The position numbers and the translations under genes were made by a program. A stretch of 64,000 nucleotides of DNA, from contig CAYODQ010000001.1 in the NCBI GenBank assembly GCA_964402785.1, forward strand, positions 18,124 through 82,123, in the 5' to 3' direction. A model generated the notes under the pieces. It worked only from the letters and a program-made list of their open reading frames with translations, did no database searches and was not told the DNA's origin. Position 1 is the stretch's first letter; each line of letters starts with the position of its first letter. This document shows, one piece after another, positions 20,165 to 63,450 of the stretch. Source of the stretch: an uncultured Planctomycetia bacterium (GTDB lineage: Bacteria > Omnitrophota > Gorgyraeia > 2-02-FULL-51-18).

Positions 20165-21361
20165 GTGTCCGACGATCGCTTTAGGCTTCTGTTTGAACAT
20201 TCCTCCGATGCGCATTTCATCATTATTGATGACGTTATTACTGATTGTAATCAAGCCACGGTTTCACTGCTGAACGCTAAAAGCAAAGAAGATGTTTTAA
20301 AGATCCATCCCGGACTGCTCTCTCCTGAGTTTCAGCCGGATGGAAGGTTATCGCGCGATAAACTGATCGAAATGGATTGGGTCGCAAGAGAAAAAGGGTT
20401 CCACCGATTCGAATGGGTCCATCGTAAGCTCACAGGCGAAGATTTTCCGGTTCAGGTAACGCTCAACACGCTGGAGATCGGCGGGCGGCCCGGCATGATC
20501 GCAGTCTGGCATGACCTGACGGAGCTCAAAGAAAAGGAATCCGAGCTCAGGCAAGCGCATGACAAGATGAGGGCGGATCTTGAAGCAGCAGCTGTGATCC
20601 AGCGGTCGCTTCTTCCGGTATCCTCGCCGCGCGTGAAGGGCCTTCGTTCGGGTTGGGCTTTCAAGCCTTCGGATGAATTGGGAGGGGATATTCTTAATAT
20701 TTTCCCTTTAGATGAAAAGCATGTCGGGATGTACGTGTTGGATGTGACCGGCCACGGAGTCGGTGCGTCGCTTTTGTCAGTGGCCGCCAGCCATTTTCTT
20801 TCGCCATTTTCAGAAGCTTCATTTATCCGCAGCAAACTAGGCAGTCAATCAGGCTTGGCGCGGCCTGCCGAAGTAGCTGAAAAATTGAACCGTCATTTTA
20901 CCGCCAATCCGGATCTACTTCACTTGTTTACGATGCTGTATGGCGTGCTCAATGTTCAAACGCTGGAGTTTTGTTATGTATGTGCAGGCCATCCTCTCCC
21001 AATCGTAGTCTCCAAAGAAGGAAAAGCTCAAGCGGCCGCCGGTTCCGGGATGCCGATAGGTGTGGATCAAAATTTTGAGTATTCGGAGCTTTGTATGAAA
21101 CTTAAACCGGGGGATCGGTTTTATTTGTATTCAGATGGCCTGACCGAAGCAAGGGGTCGCCGGCGTGAACAGTTCGGAGAAGAGCGTCTAATGGCTCATC
21201 TGTCCCAGATGCGGCGATCGTCGTTATTTGAAAGCGCCCAAAGTGTCATTCGCGAAGTTGAAAATTGGTGCTCACCATCAAAACCGGATGACGATATGAC
21301 TCTTTTAGCTTGCGAACTGGTGGAAGGATGTGATGGCAAGACTCTTGAGGAGTGTTTATGA
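20165..21361 (+). CDS. PAS-domain PP2C-type serine phosphatase (RsbU/SpoIIE family)
   Basis: N-terminal PAS-like region then PP2C core GGDILNIFPLDEKHVGMYVLDVTGHGVGASLL. Confidence 0.85.
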   Translation: MSDDRFRLLFEHSSDAHFIIIDDVITDCNQATVSLLNAKSKEDVLKIHPGLLSPEFQPDGRLSRDKLIEMDWVAREKGFHRFEWVHRKLTGEDFPVQVTLNTLEIGGRPGMIAVWHDLTELKEKESELRQAHDKMRADLEAAAVIQRSLLPVSSPRVKGLRSGWAFKPSDELGGDILNIFPLDEKHVGMYVLDVTGHGVGASLLSVAASHFLSPFSEASFIRSKLGSQSGLARPAEVAEKLNRHFTANPDLLHLFTMLYGVLNVQTLEFCYVCAGHPLPIVVSKEGKAQAAAGSGMPIGVDQNFEYSELCMKLKPGDRFYLYSDGLTEARGRRREQFGEERLMAHLSQMRRSSLFESAQSVIREVENWCSPSKPDDDMTLLACELVEGCDGKTLEECL

Positions 21362-27686: not shown

Positions 27687-27820
27687 ATTAAGCAAGATCC
27701 AATTGCCGGAAATTCCCAAGGGCGCTTCTGGATTTTTGTGGCGTGGTATTGATAAGTAGAATTGTATGATGTATAATATTGATAAGATATAGTAATTATT
27801 GATAATTGTGGAGACGGGTT

Positions 27821-28198
27821 ATGAGGAAGAGAATTCTCGTGGTGGATGACGAGAAAAATATCACAATTTTTTTAAGAAGCTATTTAGAGGATACCGGTCA
27901 TTACACGGTCATGACTGAAAATGTTGGTTTGAATGCGATCGAAACAGCCAGGAAGTTTAAGCCGGATCTGATTTTGCTGGATATTATGATGAAGGACGTG
28001 AGTGGTGATAGCCTGGCCGACGAGATCAAGAACGACCCGGATCTTCATAATGTCCCTATAGTTTTTTTGACAGGTATCGTCACCAAGGAAGAGGTAGAGG
28101 CCAACGGTGGTATTATTGGTGGTTACACCTACATCGCAAAGCCCATATTGGCCATGCATGAACTTATCGATTGCATAGAAGCCAACCTTATCAAGTGA
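27821..28198 (+). CDS. Single-domain response regulator (REC only)
   Basis: ILVVDDEKN..LILLDIMM..FLTG receiver motifs; ATG27821 chosen over TTG27806. Confidence 0.85.
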   Translation: MRKRILVVDDEKNITIFLRSYLEDTGHYTVMTENVGLNAIETARKFKPDLILLDIMMKDVSGDSLADEIKNDPDLHNVPIVFLTGIVTKEEVEANGGIIGGYTYIAKPILAMHELIDCIEANLIK

Positions 28199-28208
28199 GC
28201 CATTTTCT

Positions 28209-30176
28209 GTGAATTCTCCCGTAAAGGTCCTGCTGTTGGAAGACATGCAATCCGATGCGGATCTTATTTTCAATGAGCTGAAGGCATCCGGAATCTCATT
28301 TGATTTTAAGCATGTTGAATCGAAGTCGGATTTTGTAAAAGCTCTTATATATTTCAATCCACAACTTGTTCTCTCAGATTATATGGTGCAAGGCTACAGC
28401 GGTTTGGATGCTTTGCATGAGGTTCAAAAAAACTGTCCACTTTGCCCATTTATTTTTATTTCTTGGGAAATACATCAAGACTCTGTAGTGGAAGCACTCA
28501 AGGCAGGTGCCACAGATCACGTTTTTAAAGAAAGGATCGGGCGGCTAACATTTTCTGTACATCGCGCCCTTCGCGAAGCCAAGGAGAGGCAAGCTCTTGA
28601 GGCGGCGCACCGTGCGCTTCAGATCAGCGAGGAGTATTTCCGTTCTCTCATCGAAAATTCAAGCGATATCATCACCGTTATTGATCAAGCCGGGAAAATT
28701 TATTATGCCAGCCCATCCGTCGAGAAGGTTTTGGGCTACGATACCGCGGAATTTATCGGCCATCATTTATATGAATTCATACACCACGAAGACCACGAAA
28801 ATGCAAAATTCATCCTAAACGAGGAAGGCCAGAAGAAAGACGTGTCTCTGGAATTCCGTTTCCAGCATCATGATGGATCTTGGCGTGGTTTGGAGGCGAT
28901 TGGAAAGCGCGTAACGGTGGAGGGTGAGTCGCGAGTGATCTTGAACGCTCGGGATGTCACGGATCGTCTTTTGGAGCAAGAGGCGTTGCGTGAAAGTATT
29001 ATCCGACATCTCAAAACACAGACTGAGCTTCAGAAAACACAGCAGAGGATCATCCAGCAAGAGCGCTTGGCGGCGATTGGACAGATGGCCAGTGGTATTG
29101 CCCATGACTTTTCTAATGCTCTAATGCCTGTTCTGGGTTTTAGCGAGATCTTAATGAATCAACCAGAAGCGCTAAAAGACCTGACGAAAGTAAAAAAATA
29201 CCTAGAGATGATCAATACTTCCGCCAGAGACGCTATGCATATCGTAGGTGGTTTGAGAGATTTTTATCGCACCAAGGAAAAGAATGAACATTTGGTAGCG
29301 ACCAATGTGAATAAAGTGGTTGAGCAAGCTGTGATGTTGACGCAACCCAAATGGAAAGAGGAGAGCCGTGCCAAAGGGATAGAGATTGAAACGAAGATGG
29401 AGCTCAAAAATGTTCCGGATATGATCGCGAATGAATCTTCTCTTCGCGAGGCTTTGACCAATCTTATTTTTAATGCCGTAGATGCAATGCCGGAGGGCGG
29501 GAAGATCATTTTTAGGAGCCGAGAGGAGGATGGATACGTTCTTCTGGATGTCTCAGATACAGGGCAGGGTATGCCGGAGGATGTAAGAGAGCGCTGCTTT
29601 GAGCCTTTTTACTCGACCAAAGGAAAAGGTGGAACAGGTTTGGGATTGGCGATGGTGTACGGTGTTGTTCGTCGGCATGACGGGGCTATCGATGTCAAAA
29701 GTATTCAGGGGGTTGGAACCACGTTCATGATTCGTCTGCCTGTCAAACAAGTCAAAGGCAAGGACGTTGGTGTACCCGCTCCGGCGACCTTAGAAATGAG
29801 CCGAAAACTTTGGGTGCTTGTGGTGGATGATGAGCCCATGGTTCGCGAAGTCATGACCGAATATCTAAAAGGGGACGGCCATTCGGTGGACACGGCCTGC
29901 AATGGTGTCGAAGCGCTCAAAATATTCAAGGAAAAAAAATTCGACCTTATGATCACCGATCGCGCGATGCCTGAGATGAGTGGTGATCAGTTGACTCAGG
30001 AGATCAAAAAAATTTCTCCGCATATTCCGGTTATTATGTTGACAGGATTTGGCGAATTGATGAAAGCTAAAGGCGAACAACCCCAGGGAGTGAATTGTCT
30101 TTTAAGTAAACCGCTTACTTTTGAAGCCTATCGAAATGCGCTTTTGCGTGTTTTCCCACATGTTAAAAATGCTTAA
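28209..30176 (+). CDS. Hybrid sensor histidine kinase (REC-PAS-HisKA-HATPase_c-REC), cytoplasmic
   Basis: N-terminal REC (VLLLEDMQSD..LSDYMV), PAS, H-box IAHDFSNAL, G-boxes, C-terminal REC (LVVDDEPMV..LMITDRAMP). Confidence 0.9.
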   Translation: MNSPVKVLLLEDMQSDADLIFNELKASGISFDFKHVESKSDFVKALIYFNPQLVLSDYMVQGYSGLDALHEVQKNCPLCPFIFISWEIHQDSVVEALKAGATDHVFKERIGRLTFSVHRALREAKERQALEAAHRALQISEEYFRSLIENSSDIITVIDQAGKIYYASPSVEKVLGYDTAEFIGHHLYEFIHHEDHENAKFILNEEGQKKDVSLEFRFQHHDGSWRGLEAIGKRVTVEGESRVILNARDVTDRLLEQEALRESIIRHLKTQTELQKTQQRIIQQERLAAIGQMASGIAHDFSNALMPVLGFSEILMNQPEALKDLTKVKKYLEMINTSARDAMHIVGGLRDFYRTKEKNEHLVATNVNKVVEQAVMLTQPKWKEESRAKGIEIETKMELKNVPDMIANESSLREALTNLIFNAVDAMPEGGKIIFRSREEDGYVLLDVSDTGQGMPEDVRERCFEPFYSTKGKGGTGLGLAMVYGVVRRHDGAIDVKSIQGVGTTFMIRLPVKQVKGKDVGVPAPATLEMSRKLWVLVVDDEPMVREVMTEYLKGDGHSVDTACNGVEALKIFKEKKFDLMITDRAMPEMSGDQLTQEIKKISPHIPVIMLTGFGELMKAKGEQPQGVNCLLSKPLTFEAYRNALLRVFPHVKNA

Positions 30177-30185
30177 ATACGTTTG

Positions 30186-30214
30186 TTGACACTCGCTTCC
30201 AGCGGGAGTATACT
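30186..30214 (+). promoter_or_regulatory. Sigma70-type promoter TTGACA-17 nt-TATACT upstream of lipoprotein gene
   Basis: Consensus -35 and near-consensus -10 with 17-nt spacer. Confidence 0.55.
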
Positions 30215-30271
30215 CCATTTCAGTTTGAAATTTCGCTCACAAATTGACCCCGAAAAAAGGAAGGAAATGCG

Positions 30272-30802
30272 ATGAAGCATTGGAAAGTTGGATCAGTTGC
30301 GTTGCTAGTCATTATTTTTGCAGCCAGTGGTTGTGCCAAGAAGTCAACAGAGCAGGCAAGTATCGCGGGAACGGGTTTTGACTCGCTTTCCTCCACAGAA
30401 GAGTTGGCACAGTTGCCATCGACTTCTACTGCCAGCCAACAGGGCGCCGTTGAGGTGCTTCCGATCGAAACATCGCCCATTACTCAGGGTGTTCCTCCGA
30501 TCGCGGGACCCACATCCTCTCAAGCCACTTTGTCAGCTGGGACCGTGACAGAAGCGGTATCCGCTGTTGCTGGTTCACTGACTCGTGATCAGCAAATTCA
30601 AACCGCACTTAAGAACGCTGGTTTGTACGCCGGAAATATTGACGGAAAGATCGGCCCTGCATCCAAGCGTGCTATCCAAGAGTTTCAACGTCAAAATAAT
30701 TTAAAAGCAGACGGAAAAGTCGGCCCCAAGACTTGGGCTGCCATGGAACACTACTTGCAGGGTGCTCCCGAAACACAGACTCAGCAAAGCGTCGATCAGT
30801 AA
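30272..30802 (+). CDS. Lipoprotein with C-terminal peptidoglycan-binding (PG_binding_1) domain
   Basis: Lipobox ASGC; LKNAGLYAGNIDGKIGPASKRAIQEFQRQNNLKADGKVGPKTWAAM. Confidence 0.75.
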   Translation: MKHWKVGSVALLVIIFAASGCAKKSTEQASIAGTGFDSLSSTEELAQLPSTSTASQQGAVEVLPIETSPITQGVPPIAGPTSSQATLSAGTVTEAVSAVAGSLTRDQQIQTALKNAGLYAGNIDGKIGPASKRAIQEFQRQNNLKADGKVGPKTWAAMEHYLQGAPETQTQQSVDQ

Positions 30803-30821
30803 CAATACTTGGTTCGAATCT

Positions 30822-30873
30822 CCGCCCTTTCTTGGCTCCGCGCGAGCTTGGAAAGGGCGGTTTTTATTTGTTT
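30822..30873 (+). terminator. Rho-independent terminator (CCGCCCTTTC...GAAAGGGCGG + TTTTTATTTGTTT)
   Basis: 10-bp GC-rich stem with internal GCTC/GAGC sub-stem, U-tract. Confidence 0.75.
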
Positions 30874-30896
30874 AAATCCTCAGTCCTCTATATAAT
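30868..30896 (+). promoter_or_regulatory. Putative sigma70 promoter TTGTTT-17 nt-TATAAT for the sodC operon
   Basis: Hexamers and spacing read from sequence; followed by TTCGTAA direct repeats and a GGAG RBS. Confidence 0.5.
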
Positions 30897-30938
30897 AAAC
30901 TTTCGTAATTTTAATGTTCGTAACGGATCGGAGTATCT

Positions 30939-31457
30939 GTGATCAGAAGAGTTTTGATCGTAACTTTTTTGTTTTTGGCGTATCTTGTTTCGCCGGCATT
31001 TGCAGAGAAGGGTGTGGCTCGTATTCGTGCAACACAGGAAGGTAAGAGTTACACGGGCAATGTTTTGTTTGAGGACACGGATAACGGTCTTAAAGTATCG
31101 GCTGAGCTGCAAGGATTTGTTCCAGGCGACCATGGATTTCATATCCACCAGTTTGGCGACTGTTCCGACACCGGCAAAGCAGCCGGAGGCCACTACAATC
31201 CAGATGGAGCACCGCACGGACTCATCACCAAAGATGGTGTTCAGCACGCCCATGCCGGCGATATGGGCAATGTGACCATCGGGCCGGATGGAACAGGTAA
31301 GGCAGTGGTGGTGATCCCAGCTCTCAGCCTGCTGTCGGGACCATACGCTGTTGCGGGCCGCAGTGTGATCGTACACGAGAATAAAGACGACTTTAGCCAA
31401 CCCCTCGGAAATGCGGGCTCCCGTGTTGGTTGCGGAGAGATCGTTATTTCATCATGA
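30939..31457 (+). CDS. sodC: Periplasmic Cu/Zn superoxide dismutase
   Basis: Signal peptide; GFHIHQFGDCS, HYNPDGAPHG, HAGDMGN metal-ligand motifs; GTG start. Confidence 0.93.
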   Translation: MIRRVLIVTFLFLAYLVSPAFAEKGVARIRATQEGKSYTGNVLFEDTDNGLKVSAELQGFVPGDHGFHIHQFGDCSDTGKAAGGHYNPDGAPHGLITKDGVQHAHAGDMGNVTIGPDGTGKAVVVIPALSLLSGPYAVAGRSVIVHENKDDFSQPLGNAGSRVGCGEIVISS

Positions 31458-32968
31458 ATTTGATATTTCCGTTTTTGTTATCTCAAACGGAATCCACTTC
31501 GGTTGTTTCCCCGACAGCCGTGATCGTTATTCTGTCCTCCATTTTCGTTGCTATTGTGACCGCGTTTGCGCTAAATCGCGCAGCTCATTCTAAAAAAGAA
31601 ATTCGTATTGAAAGCGGATCTATTCCCAAAAAAGAATTTGTGGCTGAAAACCCGGCCACAACAACCGCCCTCAAAGAAAAATTAGCCAGGCTTCCTGTTC
31701 GAATACCCGACCGTGACAATACGATCCAGGAAATATCCAAGATAATCGAAGAGGAGACCGAAACGCGCCTGAAAGAAGTGAAACAAGAATATTCCGTCAA
31801 ATACCAGGTCATGGTCCAGGAAAAAAATAAAGAAGTGGAAGGTGTCCGGCGTGAATTCAATAAGACGGTCGAAAAATACGACGAGGTGAAGCGTCTTTAT
31901 AAACGCACCGAGATCGAAAAAAAGAATACAGAAGCAGTTGTGAAGAGTATTGCGGATGGGCTAGTGGTGGTCAATGACAAAGGTGAGGTTTTGTTGATGA
32001 ATCCAGCCGCCGAGAAGATACTTGGCACGCAAAGCCAAAAAAAAGTTGGAAAAAATGTGATGGAGGGGCTGGGTTCTGAGCATCTTGTATCCATGAGCCG
32101 CCAGTTGGACGAGAGCGGGGAGAAGGTGGTGGAATACACCTCCAAAGATGAGAATGTCAAAAAAGTGATACGCTCTTCAAGTGCCGTGATCCAGAACGAG
32201 GACGGACAAACGATAGGTATGGTCAATGTGTTGACGGATGTGACCAAACAAAAAGAGTTGGATGAGATCAAAACACGTTTTGTTTCCAATGTCACCCATG
32301 AGCTTCGTACACCGATCGTGGCCATGCAAAAGGCGATCGAGATCCTGATGGACAAAAAAGGCCCTCCGCTTAGTGATATGCAGCAAAACTTTTTGGGGAT
32401 TGTGCAGCGCAATATGGCAATGCTTTCACGTTTGGTGGAAGATCTGCTGGATATGGCTAAGATCGAGTCCGGTAAGATGCGCCTTAAGTTTTTGCCGGTC
32501 AGGATCGATAAAGTGGTGAGCGATGCCTGCGAAGCGCTGGTGACTTGGGCCAACTCCAAAGAAATCCAGCTCGAGAAGGACATTGATAAAAGTTTACCCG
32601 AATTGACCGTGGATTCTGTTAAAATAACTCAGGTATTGAATAACTTGATAGGAAATGCTATCAAGTTTACGCCCAAGACGGGCAAAATATTCGTCAGTTG
32701 TGGCTGGCATGATGCTCAAAATGTTAAAATAGCGGTTCGCGATACGGGTGTTGGTATCGCAAAAGAGAATATCGCTAAGTTGTTCGGGCGCTTTGAGCAG
32801 TTTGGTGATTTACAAGGGATCAGTGGTACGGGGCTCGGTTTATGCATCTCCAAGGAGATCGTGGAGAGGCATGGCGGCAAGATTTGGGTGGAAAGTGAAG
32901 AAAAAAAAGGGGCGACGTTTACGTTTACGCTCCCCATTAAGCAGCAAGCAGTGATAGGAGGCGTTTGA
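31454..32968 (+). CDS. Membrane sensor histidine kinase (TM-coiled coil-PAS-HisKA-HATPase_c)
   Basis: H-box VTHELRTPI; N/G boxes [21 protein letters not shown]; ATG31454 overlaps sodC stop (ATGA). Confidence 0.9.
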
Positions 32969-33363
32969 TGGCGAAGGAAATTTGTATTTTATTTGTCGAT
33001 GATCAGCCGGATTTTTTGGAGACGATGACGTATTGGATGCGTAATCGTGGCTATCAAGTGATCACTGCTGGTGGCGGCCCCGAGGGTATAGATCTTCTCA
33101 AGAAAAATGAACAAGTAGATATCGTTTTCGCCGATTTTAAAATGGAAGGCATGAACGGTATCGAAATGATCACCAAGATCCGAGAGTTCAATAAAACGAT
33201 CCCGATCGTGATGGTCACGGCGCATGCAGACGATGCCATGATCCATAAGACCAAAGACCTCAATATCTCAGGTTTCTTCTCAAAAATGGGTGGTTTTGAG
33301 GATCTGGAACAGGTGATCGAAGTGGTGCTTCGCAGCATCAAGCGATCGAAGGGCAACGCCTGA
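32965..33363 (+). CDS. Single-domain response regulator (REC only)
   Basis: [25 protein letters not shown]; ATGA overlap with kinase. Confidence 0.85.
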
Positions 33364-33373
33364 GGTTTTTTAC

Positions 33374-34507
33374 ATGAATCTCAAAGCAGCTATTTTTTTT
33401 CTACTCTGCTTTACTATTACTACATCTCTCCTGGCCGAAGACAATGATGTTGTTTTGGGTTTGGTAGCGCCGCTTACGGGTGACCAGTCGTTCATTGGCA
33501 TTGGTATGAGGCAGGGCGCCGAGCTCGCTATCGAAGACGCCAATATCAAGGGCCCTATTTTTGGGGCATCCAAGATCAAGCTTCAAGCCGAAGACGACCA
33601 GCACAACCCAACCCAAGCTGTTCTAGCCGCCAATAAACTCATCGCCAATCCGGATGTGATGGCAGTTGTCGGACATTTTAATTCCAGCTGCACGAAAGCC
33701 GCCTCCACGATCTATCATGAAGCGCGGCTGACTCAAGCAACACCCGCCTCCACCAACCCCGAGATCTCGCAGCAAGGATTTGATACTTTTTTTCGTATGT
33801 GTGCGACCGATGATGTGCAAGCGCCCGCTGCAGCTGAGTTCGTCAAAAATGATCTGCATGTATCGGAGATCGTGGTCATCGATGATCAAACCACTTATGG
33901 CCGAGGGCTGGCGAACGAGTTCGAAAAAAAATTCAAATCAATGGGCGGTGTTGTGCTTCATCGGGATGGTATTACTCAGGGAGATAAGGATTTTATGTCT
34001 CTTTTGACCAAGGTCAAATCCAAAAAACCGCAGGCTGTCTTTTTTGGTGGCATCTATCCTGAGATGGCTTTGCTGTTGAAACAATCCAAAAAGGTGGGCC
34101 TCAAAGCTCCTTGGATAGGGGGCGATGGGATCTATGATGCGACACTTATTCAGCTGGCCTCACCCGAACTTGCTGAGGGCACCTACGCCACGATGTTGGG
34201 GGTAGATCCTAAAAGTTTGCCTGCCGCACAGGATTTTGTGACGCGTTACGAAGCGAGGTTTGGGGCGTTGGGGTCGTATTCCGCTTACGGTTATGATACG
34301 GCAGCGATCCTGATCGAAGCTATTCGCCGCGCGGGTAAAAAGGATCGTGAGGCTGTATTATCCGAGATGAAAAAAATGAAAGATTTCCCCGGGATCCTGG
34401 GTGCCGTCAATTTTGACGCCAAGGGTGATGCGATCGGGCGAAGTGTGGGTGTGTTCAAGGTCGAAAACGGCAAGTTCATTTTTATCAAAGAAATGAAATC
34501 CAATTAG
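33374..34507 (+). CDS. Branched-chain amino acid ABC transporter substrate-binding protein (LivJ/K family)
   Basis: Signal peptide, type I periplasmic binding fold motifs, followed by livHMGF. Confidence 0.9.
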   Translation: MNLKAAIFFLLCFTITTSLLAEDNDVVLGLVAPLTGDQSFIGIGMRQGAELAIEDANIKGPIFGASKIKLQAEDDQHNPTQAVLAANKLIANPDVMAVVGHFNSSCTKAASTIYHEARLTQATPASTNPEISQQGFDTFFRMCATDDVQAPAAAEFVKNDLHVSEIVVIDDQTTYGRGLANEFEKKFKSMGGVVLHRDGITQGDKDFMSLLTKVKSKKPQAVFFGGIYPEMALLLKQSKKVGLKAPWIGGDGIYDATLIQLASPELAEGTYATMLGVDPKSLPAAQDFVTRYEARFGALGSYSAYGYDTAAILIEAIRRAGKKDREAVLSEMKKMKDFPGILGAVNFDAKGDAIGRSVGVFKVENGKFIFIKEMKSN

Positions 34508-35413
34508 TTGCAGCTTTTTTTTCAGCAATTATCCAACGGCCTTACGGTAGGCCTTATATACGCGCTGATCGCTCTGGGTTACACCATGGTGTACGGCGTT
34601 CTTCAGCTTATCAATTTTGCGCATGGTGAAGTGTTCATGGTGGGTGGTTATTTAGCGCTCACTGCGATAGCCTTGACCACATTTCTTTGGCCCAACCTAC
34701 CATTCTGGCTGGCTATTCCATTGGTTGTGATCTTTACTGTCCTTGGAACCTCTTTTTTGGGAGCTCTGATTGAAAAGACGGCTTACCGGCCTTTGCGCGG
34801 TTCTCCCAAGTTGACCGCATTGATCAGCTCTATCGGAATATCATTTTTTCTTCAGAACATCGTAATGCTGATCTATGGTTCTAAGGAACAGGTGGTGCCT
34901 GAAATTCTTCCTTCATGGCAGGTCGACGTGGGTGACGTCACGATCACGCTAGTACAGGTGATCATTTTGATCATATCGGTCAGCCTCATGGTTTTTTTAA
35001 ATTGGTTCATACGTTCCACACGAACCGGCCGGGCGATGCGGGCTGTGTCTGAGGACACAGAAGCGGCTTATCTTATGGGAATATCAGTGAATCGCGTTAT
35101 CCAAGCTACATTTGTATTGGGCTCAGCGTTGGCGGCTGTGGGAGGCACTCTTTTTGCTATGAATTACGGAAGTCTCAATTTTCACGATGGCTATATGGCA
35201 GGGCTCAAGGCGTTTACGGCGGCTGTTTTTGGCGGCATCGGATCCATCTCAGGCGCTATGCTGGGCGGCGTATTATTGGGAGTTTTTGAGGTTTTTGGAG
35301 CGGGTTATATTTCATCCGAATGGAAAGATGTTTTTGCATTTGTTCTCTTAGTGGTCATGCTGCTTTTTAAGCCATCCGGTATTTTGGGTGAGCCTACTTC
35401 GGAAAAAGTTTAA
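34508..35413 (+). CDS. livH: Branched-chain amino acid ABC transporter permease
   Basis: Polytopic; LivH-like. Confidence 0.9.
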   Translation: MQLFFQQLSNGLTVGLIYALIALGYTMVYGVLQLINFAHGEVFMVGGYLALTAIALTTFLWPNLPFWLAIPLVVIFTVLGTSFLGALIEKTAYRPLRGSPKLTALISSIGISFFLQNIVMLIYGSKEQVVPEILPSWQVDVGDVTITLVQVIILIISVSLMVFLNWFIRSTRTGRAMRAVSEDTEAAYLMGISVNRVIQATFVLGSALAAVGGTLFAMNYGSLNFHDGYMAGLKAFTAAVFGGIGSISGAMLGGVLLGVFEVFGAGYISSEWKDVFAFVLLVVMLLFKPSGILGEPTSEKV

Positions 35414-36379
35414 GTGAAATTTTTTAAACATCCCATTCTAAGATATCTACTTCCTTTTGCGCTTATCCCGCTCGTCGATCACAACCGTTATCACCTCGAC
35501 GTGCTGACCGGCGTGGGTTTGTATGCGTTATTGGCAGTGGGACTGAATGTTGTTGTCGGGATGGCGGGATTGCTTAATTTAGGATATGCCGCATTTTTTG
35601 CCATCGGAGCCTATACGTGTGCTTTGGCCAATTTGCATTGGCATTGGAATTTTTGGCTTAGCCTGCCGCTTGCCGGACTTGTTTCTATGTTGTTTGGGTT
35701 TCTGATCGGGCTTCCATCTATTCGCGTGCGTGGAGATTATCTTGCGATCACGACGCTGGGTTTTGGGGAGATCGTCAGGATCTCTTTCAATAATCTAGAC
35801 ACCTGGACCGGCGGCCCCAATGGTTTGCTGGGAATATCCCGCCCGACCGTTTTTGGTTACACTTTTTCTGTGAATCCCGAGCCATATTATTATCTGATCT
35901 TATTTTTGTTGGCCAGCACGATCTATTTTCTATTGCGATTAAGTGACTCCAAAATGGGGCGGGCTTTGGTGGCGATCCGCGAGGATGAGCTGGCAGCTTC
36001 CTGTATGGGTATTCCCGTTGTACAGGTGAAGCTGGTGGCATTTGGGATCAGTTCTTTTATTGCCGGGATGGCGGGCGCTTTTTTTGCATCCAAACAAACG
36101 ATGATCACGCCTGATAGTTTTGATTTTGTGTTCTCTGTTTTGATCTTGGCGATGGTGGTGTTGGGCGGTATGGGCAATATTTGGGGCGCGGTTCTGGGGG
36201 CGCTGGTTCTAGGTTTATTGCCTGAGCTTTTGCGTAGTTTTGCAGCGTATCGCATGCTCATTTTTGGGGTGCTCATGATCGTGATGATGATCTTCCGGCC
36301 TCAAGGGATATTGGGAAATCACATTATTAGCCGGGAGCTTAGATCCAGAAAATCCGAGGTTGAAGATGCCTCTTCTTGA
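35414..36379 (+). CDS. livM: Branched-chain amino acid ABC transporter permease
   Basis: Polytopic; LivM-like. Confidence 0.88.
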   Translation: MKFFKHPILRYLLPFALIPLVDHNRYHLDVLTGVGLYALLAVGLNVVVGMAGLLNLGYAAFFAIGAYTCALANLHWHWNFWLSLPLAGLVSMLFGFLIGLPSIRVRGDYLAITTLGFGEIVRISFNNLDTWTGGPNGLLGISRPTVFGYTFSVNPEPYYYLILFLLASTIYFLLRLSDSKMGRALVAIREDELAASCMGIPVVQVKLVAFGISSFIAGMAGAFFASKQTMITPDSFDFVFSVLILAMVVLGGMGNIWGAVLGALVLGLLPELLRSFAAYRMLIFGVLMIVMMIFRPQGILGNHIISRELRSRKSEVEDASS

Positions 36380-37133
36380 AGTGGAGTCCGTTTCCAAACG
36401 GTTTGGCGGTGTCCAGGCGCTCAAGAATGTCAGCCTGACGATCTCCGAGGGGGAGATCGTGGGTTTGATCGGACCCAACGGTGCCGGAAAAACCTCATTT
36501 TTTAATTGCATCACCGGGCTTATGCCGATCGATGAGGGGCAGGTTTTACTCATGGAGAGGAGTATTTCTCTCAAGTCTCTGGCACCTCATCGGATTCTTG
36601 AAAGTGGCGTGGCGCGCACTTTTCAAAATTTAAGGATATTTAAGAATATGACTGCGCTGGAGAACGTGGCAGTTGGTTTTCATTCACGTATTCGGTATGG
36701 GATCTGGGAATCCACGATTCGTTCCAAAAGGTTCGCAGAAGAGGAGAAGATGATCTTTCAGAGAAGCCATGATCTTTTGAAGTTGATCGGGCTGGAGAAT
36801 AAGGGTAATGAGATCGCTGGCAATCTATCCTATGGCGGCCAAAAGCGCCTTGAGATAGCGCGCGCATTGGCGTCCGAGCCCAAACTGCTGCTTTTGGATG
36901 AGCCGGTGGCGGGTATGAACCCAACCGAGAAAGAAGAGCTTTCGGATCTGATCCGTAAGATCCGGTCGCGCAATGTTGCTATTCTACTCATCGAGCATGA
37001 TATGAAGGTCGTAATGCCTTTGTCGCAGAGGATCGTGGTCTTGGATGAAGGACAAAAGATCGCCGAAGGCACCGCCGATAAGGTCAAGAACGATCCTCGT
37101 GTTATCAAGGCTTATCTGGGAGAGTCGCTCTGA
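36360..37133 (+). CDS. livG: Branched-chain amino acid ABC transporter ATP-binding protein
   Basis: GPNGAGKTS Walker A, LSYGGQKRLEIARAL signature. Confidence 0.92.
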   Translation: MKMPLLEVESVSKRFGGVQALKNVSLTISEGEIVGLIGPNGAGKTSFFNCITGLMPIDEGQVLLMERSISLKSLAPHRILESGVARTFQNLRIFKNMTALENVAVGFHSRIRYGIWESTIRSKRFAEEEKMIFQRSHDLLKLIGLENKGNEIAGNLSYGGQKRLEIARALASEPKLLLLDEPVAGMNPTEKEELSDLIRKIRSRNVAILLIEHDMKVVMPLSQRIVVLDEGQKIAEGTADKVKNDPRVIKAYLGESL

Positions 37134-37840
37134 TGCTAGAGATGAGGCATGTTTATACACGGTATGGCCAGGTGGAGTGCCTGAAAGGCATTAACTTTAA
37201 GGTTCAAGAAAATGAGATCGTTGCACTCCTCGGAGCCAATGGTGCCGGAAAGACCACGGTTCTCAAAACTCTTTCTGGTTTAGTACGTCCCACGGCCGGC
37301 GAAGTTCTATTTCAGGGTAAAAAAATATCTTCATTATCACCGGAGACGATCGTGCGGGTTGGCATCTCACATGTACCTGAAGGCCGCAAAATTTTTCAAA
37401 AATTGACCGTGTTGGAAAATCTGGCTTTGGGGGCTTACACAAGGCGCGATGCCGCACAGATCAAAAAGGACATGGAGAGCAACTTTGAACTTTTTCCCAT
37501 TTTAGAAAATCGCAGACATCAGAAAGCCGGGACATTGTCTGGGGGTGAGCAGCAAATGCTGGCGCTGGCCAGGGCGCTGATGGCACGCCCATCTGTGCTT
37601 TTGTTGGACGAACCGTCGCTGGGGTTGGCTCCCATATTTGTTTCCACGATCTTTAAAATGATCGAAACTATCCACCGCCAAGGCAAAACGATCTTGATCG
37701 TGGAGCAAAATGCGAGCATGGCGCTAAAGATCGCCAGTCGCGCGTATGTTCTGGAGATAGGGCAGATTGTTTTGGAGGGAGATGCAAAAACGGTGAAGAG
37801 CAGTGCTGCGGTTCAAGAAGCTTACCTGGGTGGCTCTTAG
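37133..37840 (+). CDS. livF: Branched-chain amino acid ABC transporter ATP-binding protein
   Basis: GANGAGKTT, LSGGEQQMLALARAL. Confidence 0.92.
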   Translation: MLEMRHVYTRYGQVECLKGINFKVQENEIVALLGANGAGKTTVLKTLSGLVRPTAGEVLFQGKKISSLSPETIVRVGISHVPEGRKIFQKLTVLENLALGAYTRRDAAQIKKDMESNFELFPILENRRHQKAGTLSGGEQQMLALARALMARPSVLLLDEPSLGLAPIFVSTIFKMIETIHRQGKTILIVEQNASMALKIASRAYVLEIGQIVLEGDAKTVKSSAAVQEAYLGGS

Positions 37841-37847
37841 AGTATTT

Positions 37848-38057
37848 TTAGATCGCCTTTTTCTTCAAGACAAAACAAAGGTTCTTCTTTTCATCCATGG
37901 TGATATCCAGCGTGCGATCCTGAAGCGCTTTTTTATGCTGCCTGCAGAGTAGGACAGGGAACATGTCATCCGGCTGCGGCATCACATTGGTCACCGTTTC
38001 AATGTCCACGTGTTCTTCGGTACCGCACACTGAGCATATTTTTTCGAGCTTGGGCAT
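37848..38057 (-). CDS. Small hypothetical protein (69 aa) with CxxC...CxxH zinc-ribbon-like pattern
   Basis: CSVCG ... LLCRQH; SD-like AAGAGG 5 nt upstream of ATG on minus strand; convergent with livF. Confidence 0.45.
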   Translation of the reverse strand: MPKLEKICSVCGTEEHVDIETVTNVMPQPDDMFPVLLCRQHKKALQDRTLDITMDEKKNLCFVLKKKAI

Positions 38058-38158
38058 CTATAACCTCTTAAGGAGAGCTATCTTAACACAAAACACTGAT
38101 TTTCATCCACCACTTAAAGATGCTTAATCTTGATGAACGTTTATGCTAGAATACCGCC

Positions 38159-38548
38159 ATGACAACGCACAGATCTCTCAATAAATTAGAATTCAAGGCT
38201 CATATGAGCATTCACGATATGGTGGATGTGAAAGAGGGCGAGACCCATGAAACCAATTACACGCGTGATCGGTTTGGGAGGACTCATCGTTTAGCCAATG
38301 AAGATGGGTCTAAGCGAATACAGATCTTGCGCCACATGGTATTGGCGGGATTTTTCGTGTCATCACTATTGGCGGGTTCATTTGCGACGGCAAGCCCCAA
38401 CACTAAGGTTTCGAGTGACGATATGTCGAGTTTTTGGGGAATCGGTTTCAATGAAGAAAAAGAAGAGCCGTTCAATTTTTTAAAAAACGGGGACACCGCC
38501 TTGGGCTTCAATGAAGATGGTGACCCTAGTTTGAGCACTCGGTTTTAG
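38159..38548 (+). CDS. Hypothetical protein (possibly a shorter secreted peptide starting at ATG38336)
   Basis: ORF only; weak RBS; internal signal-peptide-like MVLAGFFVSSLLAGSFATA. Confidence 0.3.
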   Translation: MTTHRSLNKLEFKAHMSIHDMVDVKEGETHETNYTRDRFGRTHRLANEDGSKRIQILRHMVLAGFFVSSLLAGSFATASPNTKVSSDDMSSFWGIGFNEEKEEPFNFLKNGDTALGFNEDGDPSLSTRF

Positions 38549-38554
38549 AGAGGC

Positions 38555-39415
38555 ATGATAAAAAAGAAGTCTCGGTTTCGGATCCTTCCGATTTTTGCAG
38601 TATTGGTGTCTCTTATATTTGCCCATCCGTGCGCTGAAGCTAGAACGCGCTCTAAATCAAGATCCAAATCAGTCAAACCTTATTTAACAGCCAAGTCTTA
38701 TGCGGTTGTGGATGTTGATGATGGGCGGATATTGCATTCCAGGCTTCCGCATTTGAAGCTGCCTCCAGCATCGACCACCAAAGTAATGACAGCGCTTCTT
38801 GTGTTGGAGTATTTGCCGCTAGAGATGCCGGTTGTGGTGAGTAAGCGCGCTGCCAATGCTGCTCCCAGCAAAGCTGGGCTCAAAGCAGGTGTCAAATATA
38901 CGGTCAAGGATCTACTCAGAGCGACCGTTGTATCTTCTTCAAATGACGCAGCGGTCGCTCTCGCTGAGACGGTGGCCGGATCTGAGAGCGAGTTTGTCAA
39001 CCTGATGAACAAAAAAGCACGCCAGCTCGGTATGATGGAGACGAAATTTGTGAATGCTACAGGGCTGCCCATAAAAAATCAAAAACAATACACCACAGCC
39101 TATGACCTGACGCGGCTTATGAGAGTCGCTATTAAAGATAAGCGCGTGGATGAGATGATGGCTATTGTGAATACCAGCATCACGGGGAGTGACGGCGTGG
39201 TGCTGCCGCTCAAAGCGCATAATAAAATGCTCTGGAAAAAGCCCAAATGGGTCAAAGGCAAAACAGGTTGGACGCAGGCTTCGCGACACACATTTGTGGG
39301 CACCAATTACGAAAGAAACAAATCGATCGCGTTTGCCATGTTGTCTTCTCAAAAACCTTGGACGGATATCGAGCGGTTGGCTTCTTTCGGAATTATCCTT
39401 GAGCGCAGACGGTAA
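38555..39415 (+). CDS. Low-molecular-weight penicillin-binding protein, D-alanyl-D-alanine carboxypeptidase/endopeptidase (S11)
   Basis: Signal peptide; SxxK (ASTTK), SxN (SSND), KTG (KGKTGWT) motifs. Confidence 0.88.
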   Translation: MIKKKSRFRILPIFAVLVSLIFAHPCAEARTRSKSRSKSVKPYLTAKSYAVVDVDDGRILHSRLPHLKLPPASTTKVMTALLVLEYLPLEMPVVVSKRAANAAPSKAGLKAGVKYTVKDLLRATVVSSSNDAAVALAETVAGSESEFVNLMNKKARQLGMMETKFVNATGLPIKNQKQYTTAYDLTRLMRVAIKDKRVDEMMAIVNTSITGSDGVVLPLKAHNKMLWKKPKWVKGKTGWTQASRHTFVGTNYERNKSIAFAMLSSQKPWTDIERLASFGIILERRR

Positions 39416-40676
39416 TTCGCGTATAGCCGTCGTTGGTGCAGGAGCGGCTGGTTTGATGGCGGCCATTTCAGCAGGCATGGAGAGAGAGGGTCGGTATCAG
39501 GGTAATTTAAATCCCACCATTTTTTTACTGGATAGCCGAAAAAAGATCGGCGCCAAGATCCTTGTCTCAGGCGGTACCCGCTGCAATGTCACCAACACCA
39601 AAGTTTCTGAGTTGGATTATCAGACAAGCTCGCGCCGCTTTGTGAAGCAGGTGCTGCAGTCGTTCACATCCGAGCGAACGATCTCATTTTTTGAGTCCAT
39701 AGGTGTTGATCTGGTGCTTGAGCCCACTGGCAAATACTTTCCAACGACACATTCGGGGCGCACCGTATTGGATGCGCTTGTGAATGAGACGGAACGCCTC
39801 AAAATCCATCGCCGCTATGGGTGCAAGGTGATCGCTATTCAAAAAAAAGCCAAACATTTTGAGCTGAAATTAAGTACAGATGCGGGTGAAGAAGTCTTGT
39901 TGGTTGACAGAGTGATCCTGGCGACAGGGGGCTTATCTTATCCAGAGACCGGGAGTGATGGCACAGGTTTAAAGATAGCAGCCGCGTTGGGACACAAGAT
40001 CCTGCCCACGAGCCCTGCTTTGACTCCTTTTACGACGATGGACAAGGATTGGCCATCTTTGAGTGGAGTGGCTTTTCCGGTCAAATTAACTTGCTTTTGG
40101 GATGGACGATCGGCAGCTGAGTTCAAAGGCGCCATGCTTTTTACTCACACAGGTTTTAGCGGGCCAGTGGCTTTGGATATCAGCCGATTTTTTACAAATC
40201 CCCCAAAAGGTATCAAGCCAACCATTCGGGCTAGTTTTCTGCCGGATGAGAATGATGATTCGCTAAGACAAGCATTCATGGAAACGCCTCAAAAAAATCT
40301 TACACTCCTTAAATTTATCAGCAAACGATGGGATTTGCCTGAACGATGGGTGACGGTATTTCTTAAAAAAACAAAGATCCGGCCCGATGTATCGTTGGGC
40401 CAATTGACGATCAAAATGCGCACGGAACTTATACAGAAATTGTTGCATTATCCTCTTGAGGTGTCCGGTGTCATTGGTTATAAAAAAGCCGAGGTGACGG
40501 CGGGAGGGGTGGATCTAAACGAGATAGATCCTAAGACCATGCAATCCAAAAAAGTGCCTGGTCTTTATATGTGCGGAGAGGTTTTGGATGTGGATGGACG
40601 TATCGGGGGTTTTAATTTTCAATGGGGCTGGTCCAGCGGGCGCTTGGCGGGCATGTCTGCGGTGAGGTCTTTATGA
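39399..40676 (+). CDS. HI0933/BaiN-family FAD-dependent flavoprotein (aminoacetone oxidase family); TTG39399 start proposed
   Basis: RIAVVGAGAAGLMAA dinucleotide-binding motif at N-terminus; KILVSGGTRCNVTN; listed ORF start 39189 lies inside the PBP gene. Confidence 0.82.
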   Translation: MSADGNSRIAVVGAGAAGLMAAISAGMEREGRYQGNLNPTIFLLDSRKKIGAKILVSGGTRCNVTNTKVSELDYQTSSRRFVKQVLQSFTSERTISFFESIGVDLVLEPTGKYFPTTHSGRTVLDALVNETERLKIHRRYGCKVIAIQKKAKHFELKLSTDAGEEVLLVDRVILATGGLSYPETGSDGTGLKIAAALGHKILPTSPALTPFTTMDKDWPSLSGVAFPVKLTCFWDGRSAAEFKGAMLFTHTGFSGPVALDISRFFTNPPKGIKPTIRASFLPDENDDSLRQAFMETPQKNLTLLKFISKRWDLPERWVTVFLKKTKIRPDVSLGQLTIKMRTELIQKLLHYPLEVSGVIGYKKAEVTAGGVDLNEIDPKTMQSKKVPGLYMCGEVLDVDGRIGGFNFQWGWSSGRLAGMSAVRSL

Positions 40677-46439: not shown

Positions 46440-46681
46440 TGGACCCCGGTGTAGTTATCTACACAACCAATTATTGCCCCTATTGCCACGCCGCCAAGGA
46501 ATTCCTCAAGTCCAAAAAAGTTCCCTTTAAAGAAGTCGATGTCTCCACGGATGAAGTCATGCGTCAAAAATTAGTTGAGTTATCCGGGCAGGAGACGGTG
46601 CCTCAGATCTTCAGTGGTGGCCGCTCCATAGGAGGGTATCAGGATCTGGTGCGATATTATCAAGAGGGGCATCGGCTATGA
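46436..46681 (+). CDS. grxC: Glutaredoxin
   Basis: CPYC active site, TVPQIF, GG motif. Confidence 0.9.
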   Translation: MMDPGVVIYTTNYCPYCHAAKEFLKSKKVPFKEVDVSTDEVMRQKLVELSGQETVPQIFSGGRSIGGYQDLVRYYQEGHRL

Positions 46682-47040
46682 CGGGAGACTCTTGGGCCGA
46701 GAAAAGACGCCACAAGCGTTTCCCTAAAACTCTGATCGTTAAATGGCAACCCGAAGGCTCGGGTGCTTCCAATGCTTGGAAAACAGCTTTTTTGAAAGAT
46801 ATTAGCCGTGGTGGATTGGCTATGCAATGTGGCGAAGCAGTGACCATGGGTGATAAACTAAGATTTCAGGTGACGGTGGATCTTGAGACGCCTCCATTTA
46901 CTTGTGTGGGCCAGGTGGTGCGTGTTCGCCGGATCGCGTCGCCTGCCGGATACGATGTTGGTATATTTTTTACGGCCATCGATCCGCGGGATGCAGATTG
47001 TATTGATATGCTTGCTGAGGGCCACGACAGAAATATTTAA
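46678..47040 (+). CDS. PilZ-domain protein (single domain) 1
   Basis: RRHKR (RxxxR) and DISRGG (DxSxxG) c-di-GMP motifs. Confidence 0.8.
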   Translation: MTGDSWAEKRRHKRFPKTLIVKWQPEGSGASNAWKTAFLKDISRGGLAMQCGEAVTMGDKLRFQVTVDLETPPFTCVGQVVRVRRIASPAGYDVGIFFTAIDPRDADCIDMLAEGHDRNI

Positions 47041-47051
47041 GCAGGAGGCTT

Positions 47052-47438
47052 ATGGGTTATTTTGGTCAGGAACGAAGAAAAAATAAAAGGCTGCCTGAGC
47101 TTTTTTTTGTCAAATGGCAGCAGGATTCAAAAGAGTCTCCGAAAAATTGGACAACAGCTTATCTTAAGAATATTAGTCGCTCAGGCCTAGCTATGCAGTG
47201 TAGCCAAAAGCTTGTGGTCGGCGACAAGCTGAATCTTTTGGTCACTGTTCATGTCGAAACGGCTCCGTGCATGTGTGCGGGTCAAGTTATTTGGATACAA
47301 AAAACACCTGACAAGCTTGGCTATGAGGTTGGGGTGGCTTTTACCAGTATTGATAACAAAGATGCGGATTGGATCGATGTATTGGCGGAGGAATTTGAGC
47401 GCAGAGCTGAGCGAGAGAGAGGGGAGACTGCTACTTGA
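47052..47438 (+). CDS. PilZ-domain protein 2
   Basis: RRKNKR and NISRSG motifs; paralogue of 46678-47040. Confidence 0.8.
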   Translation: MGYFGQERRKNKRLPELFFVKWQQDSKESPKNWTTAYLKNISRSGLAMQCSQKLVVGDKLNLLVTVHVETAPCMCAGQVIWIQKTPDKLGYEVGVAFTSIDNKDADWIDVLAEEFERRAERERGETAT

Positions 47439-47794
47439 GCTATACGGGACCGGAGCGCCGCAAGTCGGATCGCATTCGTAAACAATTTACTATTCGCCTA
47501 AGAAGGATCTCAAACAGCTTTGCGGGTGATTGGGATATCGTCTTGTTGAAAGATATATCTAGGAGTAGTTTATCATTCCAGCATGATCGTCCTTTTGGTG
47601 AAGGGGATTTGCTAGATTTAAAGATCAGCATTGGTTCGGATGCCACGCCTATTAGTTGCCGCGGCGAGGTCGTTCGTGTCGAAGAAGCGGGCATTTCAAG
47701 AGCACATGAAATTGCCGTAGTTTTTGTCGATATTCAGCCGAATGATATGGAGCGCATCCAGAAGACCATTGACGAGCTCAGGAAGACGCTGTGA
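47435..47794 (+). CDS. PilZ-domain protein 3 (second motif degenerate: DISRSS)
   Basis: RRKSDR present; Gly of DxSxxG replaced by Ser. Confidence 0.75.
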   Translation: MSYTGPERRKSDRIRKQFTIRLRRISNSFAGDWDIVLLKDISRSSLSFQHDRPFGEGDLLDLKISIGSDATPISCRGEVVRVEEAGISRAHEIAVVFVDIQPNDMERIQKTIDELRKTL

Positions 47795-63081: not shown

Positions 63082-63450
63082 ATGACAGAAAAAAAGCTTT
63101 TAGTGATCGATGATGAGCCCAATTTTGCCGAGATGATATCGGAGTATTTCAAGTCAAAGGGTTATGATGCGCGCATGGCACTCAATCTGGAAGATGCGAT
63201 CAATGTATTTCGCACTCTGAAGCCCAAGGTTGTGCTGCTGGATTTCAATATGCCCATGGTGACGGGTGACAAATTTTTACCCATTCTTCAGACCATGAAC
63301 CCGCTTGTGAAGATCATCGTCGTGACGGGCATGATCCAAGAAGAGGTAGAGGAGAAATTCAAAGGCCTGGGGTATTATGGTTTTTTTGAAAAAGGAACCA
63401 CGCCCTTGGAAAAAATGCTCCAGAAGGTCAACGAGGCTTTGGAGGCCTAG
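63082..63450 (+). CDS. Single-domain response regulator (REC only)
   Basis: LLVIDDEPN..VLLDFNMPMV..VVTG. Confidence 0.85.
   Translation: MTEKKLLVIDDEPNFAEMISEYFKSKGYDARMALNLEDAINVFRTLKPKVVLLDFNMPMVTGDKFLPILQTMNPLVKIIVVTGMIQEEVEEKFKGLGYYGFFEKGTTPLEKMLQKVNEALEA

Follow-up and report, generated by a model that had tools for sequence, protein, structure and literature searches.

In a 64,000-nucleotide stretch of DNA from an uncultured bacterium of the Omnitrophota (assembly GCA_964402785.1, contig CAYODQ010000001.1, positions 18,124 to 82,123; hereafter the window, whose own numbering is used throughout), a gene for a Cu/Zn superoxide dismutase (sodC) is followed by genes for a sensor histidine kinase (HK), a stand-alone receiver protein (REC), and the components of a Liv-type ABC importer. 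These eight genes probably form a single Omnitrophota operon (30868–37840), in which the HK-REC pair is inherited, sodC is optional, and the kinase faces the cytoplasm. A first-pass annotation of the window had instead tentatively assigned the region 30868–33363 to a dedicated sodC-kinase-receiver module for the sensing of periplasmic superoxide or copper stress.

The eight genes (sodC, HK, REC, livK, livH, livM, livG, and livF) lie on the same strand between 30939 and 37840, and the successive junctions from sodC to livF measure −4, −1, +10, 0, 0, −20, and −1 nt. Based on the common strand, the stop/start overlaps or gaps below about 20 nt, the lack of intergenic terminators, and the maintenance of this arrangement in relatives, co-transcription and translational coupling of sodC, HK, and REC are supported at the sequence level. 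The first-pass annotation had likewise placed these genes on one coupled mRNA, a view with which the overlaps, the conserved short junctions, and the shared promoter agree, but it had confined that mRNA to three genes. As livK begins 10 nt past the REC stop and livHMGF follow, an end at 33363 cuts the transcription unit, of which the three genes are only the front part; most simply, the unit would be sodC-HK-REC-livKHMGF. Folding of the gap downstream of livF gave no convincing terminator (z = −0.54), and the end of the operon was placed instead at a convergent open reading frame (ORF) that starts 8 nt beyond livF (37848–38057, minus strand) and encodes a small 69-aa CxxC protein. A minus-strand ORF of 69–78 aa, without a Pfam match, is present at the matching spot in the related loci L002, L003, and L007. 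Promoter-like sites inside the unit were found at chance density by a consensus promoter scan (15 vs. 14.6 expected), and an Rfam scan of the whole window detected neither a leader or riboswitch upstream of sodC nor an element anywhere.

The other end of the operon is bounded by the intrinsic terminator of an upstream gene for a peptidoglycan-binding (PGB) domain protein (30272–30802). This terminator (30822–30869, plus strand) consists of a 16-bp hairpin at 30822–30860 followed by a U-run, UUUUUAUUU (fold z = −2.99), and a hairpin with a T-run was also observed at the corresponding position in L002, L009, L012, L014, and L016. The promoter candidate TTGTTT-17-TATAAT (30868–30896, plus strand; −35 at 30868–73 and −10 at 30891–96) was read from the sequence; it is missing from the output of the consensus scan, as its −35 element fits the consensus at only three of six positions. 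This promoter had already been pointed out in the first-pass annotation and is indeed present, its −10 block and 17-nt geometry being kept in relatives. In L002, TTGTGC-17-TATAAT stands behind a terminator hairpin as in the window, and the −10 block (TATAATAAACT or TATACTAAACT), which is common to sodC-bearing and sodC-less loci, is found directly before the kinase gene in the sodC-less L011 and L010. The same block before the kinase in sodC-less loci suggests that one homologous promoter drives either sodC together with the kinase or the kinase alone, which supports co-transcription and implies that sodC is a removable first cistron. Between the −10 element and the sodC ribosome-binding site, the 5′ leader contains a perfect direct repeat, TTCGTAA-N8-TTCGTAA (30902–30923, plus strand), the sole exact match to this pattern in the window, which may represent a putative operator; L002 and L011 also have CGTAAC in their leaders. 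Among sigma-70-like sites of the scanned region 28000–40000, the best, TTGACA-17-TATACT (11/12), is located at 30186–30214, before the PGB-domain gene at 30272.

Homologs of the kinase came nearly all from metagenome-assembled genomes of Candidatus Omnitrophota. A scan of one genome per species identified 428 relatives, which were confirmed by tblastn; the window proteins were mapped onto the best 80 of the 428 loci. Among 79 species-level loci, a REC gene was found no more than 300 nt after the kinase gene in 69 of the 75 that were testable. LivK follows REC in 9/67 loci, and sodC is directly upstream of the kinase in 6/73, which together with the window and L002 makes eight species. The loci that carry sodC or liv all belong to one clade, with kinase identities of at least 52%. 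The gene order is PGB-sodC-HK-REC-livKHMGF in L002 (88% kinase identity), PGB-HK-REC-livKHMGF without sodC in L003 (74%), and sodC-HK-REC-liv in L005 (60%) and L007 (53%), where genes for UDG and LigT precede sodC. The search for sodC-HK-REC triplets that the first-pass annotation had recommended thus recovered eight species of one clade and few of the phylum-wide loci; the gene order which it expected to be conserved is conserved for HK-REC, but for sodC-HK not beyond that clade.

Within this clade, sodC lies upstream of the kinase in the window, L002, L013–L016, L021, and L025 and is absent in L009–L012 and L017. In the eight species, sodC ends and the kinase gene begins at a spacing of −4 (window), −1 (L002), 3, 3, 9, 9–17, approximately 45, and approximately 49 nt. 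Close relatives with 68–75% kinase identity have no sodC, yet they keep the terminator, the promoter, HK-REC, and liv. In a neighbor-joining tree of the kinase, loci with sodC are spread over the whole clade, down to the basal L021, and the sodC-less L009–L012 are paraphyletic around the window and L002. Such a spread indicates repeated loss of sodC, and the simplest history would be an ancestral sodC followed by two or three losses. We also noticed that L025, L027, L059, and many "binchicken" records with clear kinase orthologs are labeled Eisenbacteria, Methanosarcinales archaeon, Ratteibacteria, or "uncultured Planctomycetia"; these odd labels are probably binning or labeling noise.

The reverse analysis, in which a metagenome collection was searched with a SodC alignment and the operon proteins were mapped onto the 80 closest SodC loci, revealed two loci of this operon type, neither of which has the kinase. 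L097 contains PGB-sodC-REC-livK with a 27-nt gap between sodC and REC, and L091 contains sodC-livK-livK-livH-M-G-F, with neither kinase nor receiver and with a hairpin after sodC. These two loci suggest that the operon head is modular, sodC, kinase, and receiver each being dispensable before a constant liv cassette, which is hard to square with a dedicated enzyme-sensor pair. A 22-nt GC-rich palindromic element, GGCCGGCCGGCCTTTGGCCGGC, occurs twice in L097 (307–328 and 1277–1298), inside the signal-peptide-coding starts of sodC and livK. No description of the sodC-two-component system-liv arrangement was found in the literature searched (Omnitrophota superoxide dismutases, sodC-histidine kinase operons, and Omnitrophota two-component systems).

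The kinase gene (31454–32968, plus strand; stop TGA at 32966–32968) encodes a membrane-anchored protein of 504 aa with PAS, HisKA (1e-16), and HATPase_c (5e-32) domains, in which H282-E-L-R-T-P, N397/N401, D430-x-G-x-G, and G458-T-G-L-G-L are invariant among 28 orthologs. An alignment of these orthologs, hydropathy, and an AlphaFold2 model (pLDDT 69.8) agree on its layout: an outside tail of approximately 20 aa, a single transmembrane (TM) helix (approximately residues 20–45), a disordered stretch, an 80-residue helix (87–167), the PAS domain (170–262), and the DHp and CA domains. The outside tail has 0–30 residues across the orthologs, the TM helix begins at residue 1 in several of them, and no folded domain precedes it in the model. 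Kinases that sense the periplasm have an extracytoplasmic domain, typically of more than 50 residues, between two TM helices; this kinase is without a periplasmic sensor domain, and the periplasmic sensing assumed in the first-pass annotation finds no counterpart in its single helix and short tail. The N-terminal 159 residues gave no Pfam domain at E-values up to 10, and the juxtamembrane helix is strongly conserved. The nearest NCBIfam families, WalK, PnpS, and PhoR, all score below their cut-offs (272 vs. 725, 262 vs. 400, and 220 vs. 334 bits, respectively); WalK is the best of them (7.6e-81), and the best structure match is the VicK-like 4i5s (7.8e-43). At least 90% of the 28 orthologs have Cys359, located where the ATP-binding domain begins; their PAS domains have no conserved Cys or His that would point to a cofactor.

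At the junction with sodC, the kinase ATG (31454) overlaps the sodC stop in an ATGA (31454–31457), exactly as previously annotated. The kinase start has no well-placed Shine-Dalgarno sequence (GGAGAG is 12 nt upstream), and its translation therefore probably depends in part on ribosomes that terminate at sodC. Such coupling would tie the translation rates of the two genes and would fix no ratio; the fixed stoichiometry previously ascribed to enzyme and sensor is thus not implied. With TTG at 31430 as an alternative start, the overlap would grow to 28 nt and the N-terminus would look more like a signal peptide; as the coding sequence of sodC constrains the same bases, they do not discriminate between the starts. 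With any of the starts 31430, 31454, 31460, and 31475, the two genes overlap or lie within approximately 20 nt.

The receiver (32968–33363, plus strand; 131 aa) consists of a single Response_reg domain (7.9e-25, residues 7–117), and its gene overlaps the kinase stop in a TGATG. This overlap had been recognized before, with TTG 32965 (132 aa) as the start; ATG 32968 (131 aa) is more likely, considering that AGGAGG is 6 nt upstream of it and that the REC orthologs in L002 and L003 overlap the kinase by 1 nt. D11, D12, D56, T84, and K106 are readable in the sequence, and both the acidic pocket and the phospho-acceptor are present. The nearest solved structures are those of Spo0F, CheY2 reaching only 1e-9, and no che or flagellar genes were detected in the neighborhoods of relatives that were read. 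The earlier description of the output as a receiver without a DNA-binding domain holds; an assignment to CheY is not supported by these results. Neither copper-handling genes nor Hpt proteins were detected in the neighborhoods read, which leaves the proposed copper-stress sensing without a genomic correlate. The window has three REC-only genes (27806–28198, 32968–33363, and 63082–63450), in agreement with the earlier count. The first of these is part of a region directly upstream (27806–30176) that also contains a hybrid REC-PAS-HisKA-HATPase-REC kinase and is conserved in the same clade.

The sodC gene (30939–31457, plus strand) runs from GTG 30939 to TGA 31457, with GGAG at 30930–33, 5 nt before the start, and encodes 172 aa. 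Its product matches Sod_Cu (PF00080; 7.5e-38) with 130.4 bits against a gathering cut-off of 28.9, covering profile positions 2–133 of 133. Residues H68, H70, H85, H93, H105, D108, H146, C75, C165, and R162 are invariant in nine SodC orthologs and align to those of human SOD1 that bind Cu (His46/48/63/120) and Zn (His63/71/80 and Asp83), to the Cys57-Cys146 pair, and to Arg143. The N-terminus, MIRRVLIVTFLFLAYLVSPAFA followed by EKG, resembles a signal peptide ending in AFA before the Glu, and a basic, hydrophobic, AXA layout is found in all orthologs; on this basis SodC is predicted to be periplasmic. The protein is below the NCBIfam equivalog cut-offs of the Caulobacter (72.5 vs. 250 bits), enteric (63.9 vs. 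165), and mycobacterial (41.3 vs. 230) families.

The remaining five genes (all on the plus strand) have the composition and order of a HAAT/Liv-type ABC importer, that is, a type I substrate-binding protein, two BPD_transp_2 permeases, and two ATPases in the order livK-H-M-G-F, although all five proteins are below the equivalog cut-offs. They comprise a livK-like periplasmic substrate-binding protein (33374–34507; Peripla_BP_6, 3.7e-61; best NCBIfam match a branched-chain amino acid-binding protein, below cut-off), livH-like (34508–35413, 0-nt gap; LivH, 9.8e-85) and livM-like (35414–36379, 0-nt gap; LivM, 1.9e-93) permeases, and livG-like (36360–37133, 20-nt overlap; LivG, 8.9e-86) and livF-like (37133–37840, 1-nt overlap; LivF, 4.7e-78) ATPases, the last of which ends the operon.

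To survey the surroundings of the kinase-receiver pair in other lineages, the two nearest genes on either side were tallied by Pfam domain, without preselection, in approximately 55 distant loci. Downstream, MerR_1 was found in 16 loci, AAA_22/AAA_16 in 15, STT3 in 9, and Ogg in 3; the upstream side was heterogeneous (HemN-type radical SAM, LysM, YkuD, and ETF). One recurrent arrangement is HK-REC-MerR-ExeA-like AAA_22 ATPase-T2SSC-like-secretin, present in L045 (11040–14946) and approximately 15 other loci (approximately 16/52), and another is HK-REC-STT3 oligosaccharyltransferase-GT2, as in L047 (10865–14540), the STT3 type being found in 9 loci. A phylum-wide oxidative-stress theme was considered and rejected, the commonest neighbors being MerR/AAA_22 (15–16 loci) and STT3 (9) and not genes related to reactive oxygen species (ROS); the theme is restricted to two or three lineages. 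With ROS probes, oxidative-stress genes were observed near the pair in 12 of 74 loci, seven of which have sodC (six directly upstream of the kinase, plus L019).

Taken together, these data are best accounted for by the following scenario. The kinase and the receiver would be a cognate pair inherited throughout the phylum, which in one clade came to head an operon for a Liv-type ABC importer; in the window, this operon is insulated by the terminator before it and the convergent gene behind it. Early in this clade, sodC would already have been present as a dispensable first cistron, placed after the shared promoter and before the kinase, and several losses would have followed. It would share transcription with the kinase, whose translation would rely partly on ribosomes finishing sodC. 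The kinase itself is a PAS kinase that is anchored in the membrane, faces the cytoplasm, and has an architecture of the PhoR/WalK type, and it would not read the periplasm; its signal may be cytoplasmic or membrane-borne, and the receiver might act by protein-protein contact or as a component of a phosphorelay or phosphate sink. The position of sodC would most likely reflect mere co-expression, an enzyme that protects the envelope being made along with a well-expressed envelope/transport operon.

Several observations weigh against this scenario. Even where kinase identity has fallen to 52%, sodC still adjoins the kinase with very short junctions, whereas a purely neutral neighbor would be expected to persist less well. 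Internal promoters may exist, as Omnitrophota promoters are uncharacterized and a site density at chance level neither calls nor excludes them. In addition, the L019/L090 lineage keeps sodC in a same-strand cluster 5.8 kb downstream of HK-REC-REC, after tkt and tal-pgi, and in L022, L024, L026, L031, and L035 the pair is flanked by genes for Nth (EndoIII), PNPOx, and Prx, with Ogg in four of these loci and MsrBA in L022 and L024. In L089 (3310–12835; the same as L022), the pair is located amid MsrBA, two peroxiredoxins, Ogg, EndoIII, PNPOx, and a stand-alone PAS protein, that is, an oxidative-damage repair cluster. These arrangements hint at a real link between the kinase pair and oxidative stress; the association is recurring, limited to a minority of loci in two or three arrangements, and, having been counted without matched control loci, should be regarded as a lead.

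The dedicated module of the first-pass annotation, in which sodC, kinase, and receiver sense periplasmic superoxide or copper stress and signal via a CheY-like protein, appears very unlikely. It would explain the overlapping genes and the shared promoter, the occurrence of sodC directly before the kinase in eight species of one clade with junctions of at most 50 nt, and the oxidative-stress genes beside the pair in two further lineages. However, the membrane is impermeable at neutral pH to superoxide made in the periplasm, and together with the absence of a periplasmic domain from the kinase this argues against dedicated sensing of periplasmic superoxide. Moreover, 67 of the 73 loci have the kinase pair without sodC upstream, the closest sodC-less relatives retain promoter, kinase, receiver, and liv genes, and in L097 and L091 sodC is in the operon without the kinase; no copper or chemotaxis genes were found in the neighborhoods read, and the receiver is closest to Spo0F and not to CheY. 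A different use of oxidative chemistry, with about the same low probability, would be cytoplasmic redox or peroxide sensing through the PAS domain or Cys359; sodC and, in other clades, the genes for Ogg, EndoIII, peroxiredoxin, and Msr would then adjoin the kinase as parts of a common response to oxidative stress. SodC produces H2O2, which can pass through membranes, Cys359 is highly conserved, and ROS-defense or repair genes flank HK-REC in 12/74 loci in two or three independent arrangements. Yet the probes used detected no such genes in the other 62 loci, the PAS domain lacks a conserved Cys or His that would suggest a cofactor, the receiver has no DNA-binding output by which co-regulation could be explained, and two or three arrangements, compared with no matched random Omnitrophota control loci, are too few for statistics.

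It is somewhat less improbable, though still unlikely, that the kinase reads the transport state of the Liv-type importer and tunes physiology to amino-acid supply, sodC being a passenger. HK-REC-livKHMGF is tightly packed in every member of the clade, and the short outside part, the cytoplasmic PAS domain, HisKA, and the best NCBIfam matches (PhoR, PnpS, and WalK) are in line with such coupling; PhoR offers a precedent, as its PAS domain is documented to serve in sensing by way of PhoU and the Pst transporter (PMC9239213, PMC13577022). On the other hand, liv genes are missing near the pair in 58 of 67 loci, where MerR-ExeA-like-secretin or STT3 genes come after it instead; there is no PhoU-like adaptor, the liv operon of L091 stands without kinase or receiver, and every family score is below its cut-off. 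Least probable of all appears a combination in which the pair is an envelope and oxidative-stress hub throughout the phylum: in this clade, SodC would serve as an accessory that generates the signal, converting periplasmic superoxide into membrane-permeant H2O2, which the kinase would read via Cys359 or PAS, and the receiver would tune the importer or other envelope machines post-translationally. If true, this would be a two-component system whose leader cistron codes for the very enzyme that makes its input. Transporter state, redox state or H2O2, and envelope state may be regarded as three candidate inputs of the kinase, which computation does not separate. The single eight-gene operon with an inherited pair and an optional sodC remains the explanation we favor.

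All parts of this operon belong to known families, and the sodC-two-component system-liv order is an ordinary clade-specific arrangement of known parts. As a clade-specific combination of sodC, a two-component pair, and a Liv-type importer in an uncultivated phylum, it is of very little significance in itself. It illustrates that a stop/start overlap with a kinase gene is no evidence that the neighboring enzyme defines the signal of the kinase. On the other hand, the kinase and its REC-only partner are among the most widely conserved signaling pairs in Omnitrophota (428 stretches; REC follows in 69/75), and they adjoin envelope-related cassettes that differ by clade (Liv importer, secretin/ExeA-like, STT3 glycosylation, and ROS repair). 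Because of this wide conservation beside varied cassettes, the pair would be a sensible choice to begin with, should a member of the phylum become tractable.

Additional genes of the window were noted. A 129-aa ORF (38159–38548) with no Pfam or NCBIfam match is kept across the clade between the liv operon and a D-Ala-D-Ala carboxypeptidase gene (38555–39415). A PAS-SpoIIE (PP2C-type phosphatase) gene at 20165–21361, approximately 10 kb upstream, adds to the dense signaling content of the window, and three consecutive genes at 46678–47794 (120, 128, and 119 aa) each encode one single PilZ (c-di-GMP-binding) domain.

The individual components were also compared with known systems. SodC shares with bacterial periplasmic SodC proteins (PF00080) the full-length Sod_Cu domain, six His and one Asp ligands, the disulfide pair, and the catalytic Arg, and its N-terminus has the layout of a putative Sec-type signal peptide. 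It differs from other SodC families in that its gene is the first cistron of a kinase/transporter operon and in its scores far below the NCBIfam equivalog cut-offs; the sodC gene of Escherichia coli forms a monocistronic unit that requires the stationary-phase sigma factor. The receiver resembles stand-alone receivers of the Spo0F, CheY, DivK, and CpdR class in its size (approximately 130 aa), REC-only architecture, acidic pocket, phospho-Asp, Thr, and Lys; around it, no Hpt/Spo0B-like phosphotransferase, chemotaxis, or motor genes were seen nearby.

With respect to the kinase, WalK/VicK provides the best NCBIfam and PDB matches, and neighboring genes are often envelope-related (a PG-binding protein upstream and a D-Ala-D-Ala carboxypeptidase downstream; LysM, YkuD, and STT3 elsewhere). 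However, the window kinase reaches 272 vs. 725 bits, has neither an extracellular domain nor HAMP, and is paired with a REC-only protein instead of an OmpR-type WalR. Bce-type modules likewise encode a kinase without an outside sensor beside an ABC transporter (PMC3023708, PMC11009047), but they comprise two-TM kinases without a cytoplasmic PAS domain, a BceAB-type exporter whose extracellular loop is large, and a DNA-binding regulator, none of which is found here. The PhoR-PhoU-PstSCAB system shares with the window system the membrane anchor, the negligible outside part, the cytoplasmic PAS-HisKA-HATPase, and the linkage to an ABC importer. The window system differs from it in that its kinase has a single TM helix where PhoR has two, PhoU and a DNA-binding regulator of the PhoB type are lacking, and the importer is of the Liv and not the Pst type; its kinase scores 220 vs. 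334 bits, and most orthologs of this kinase are encoded without a transporter nearby.

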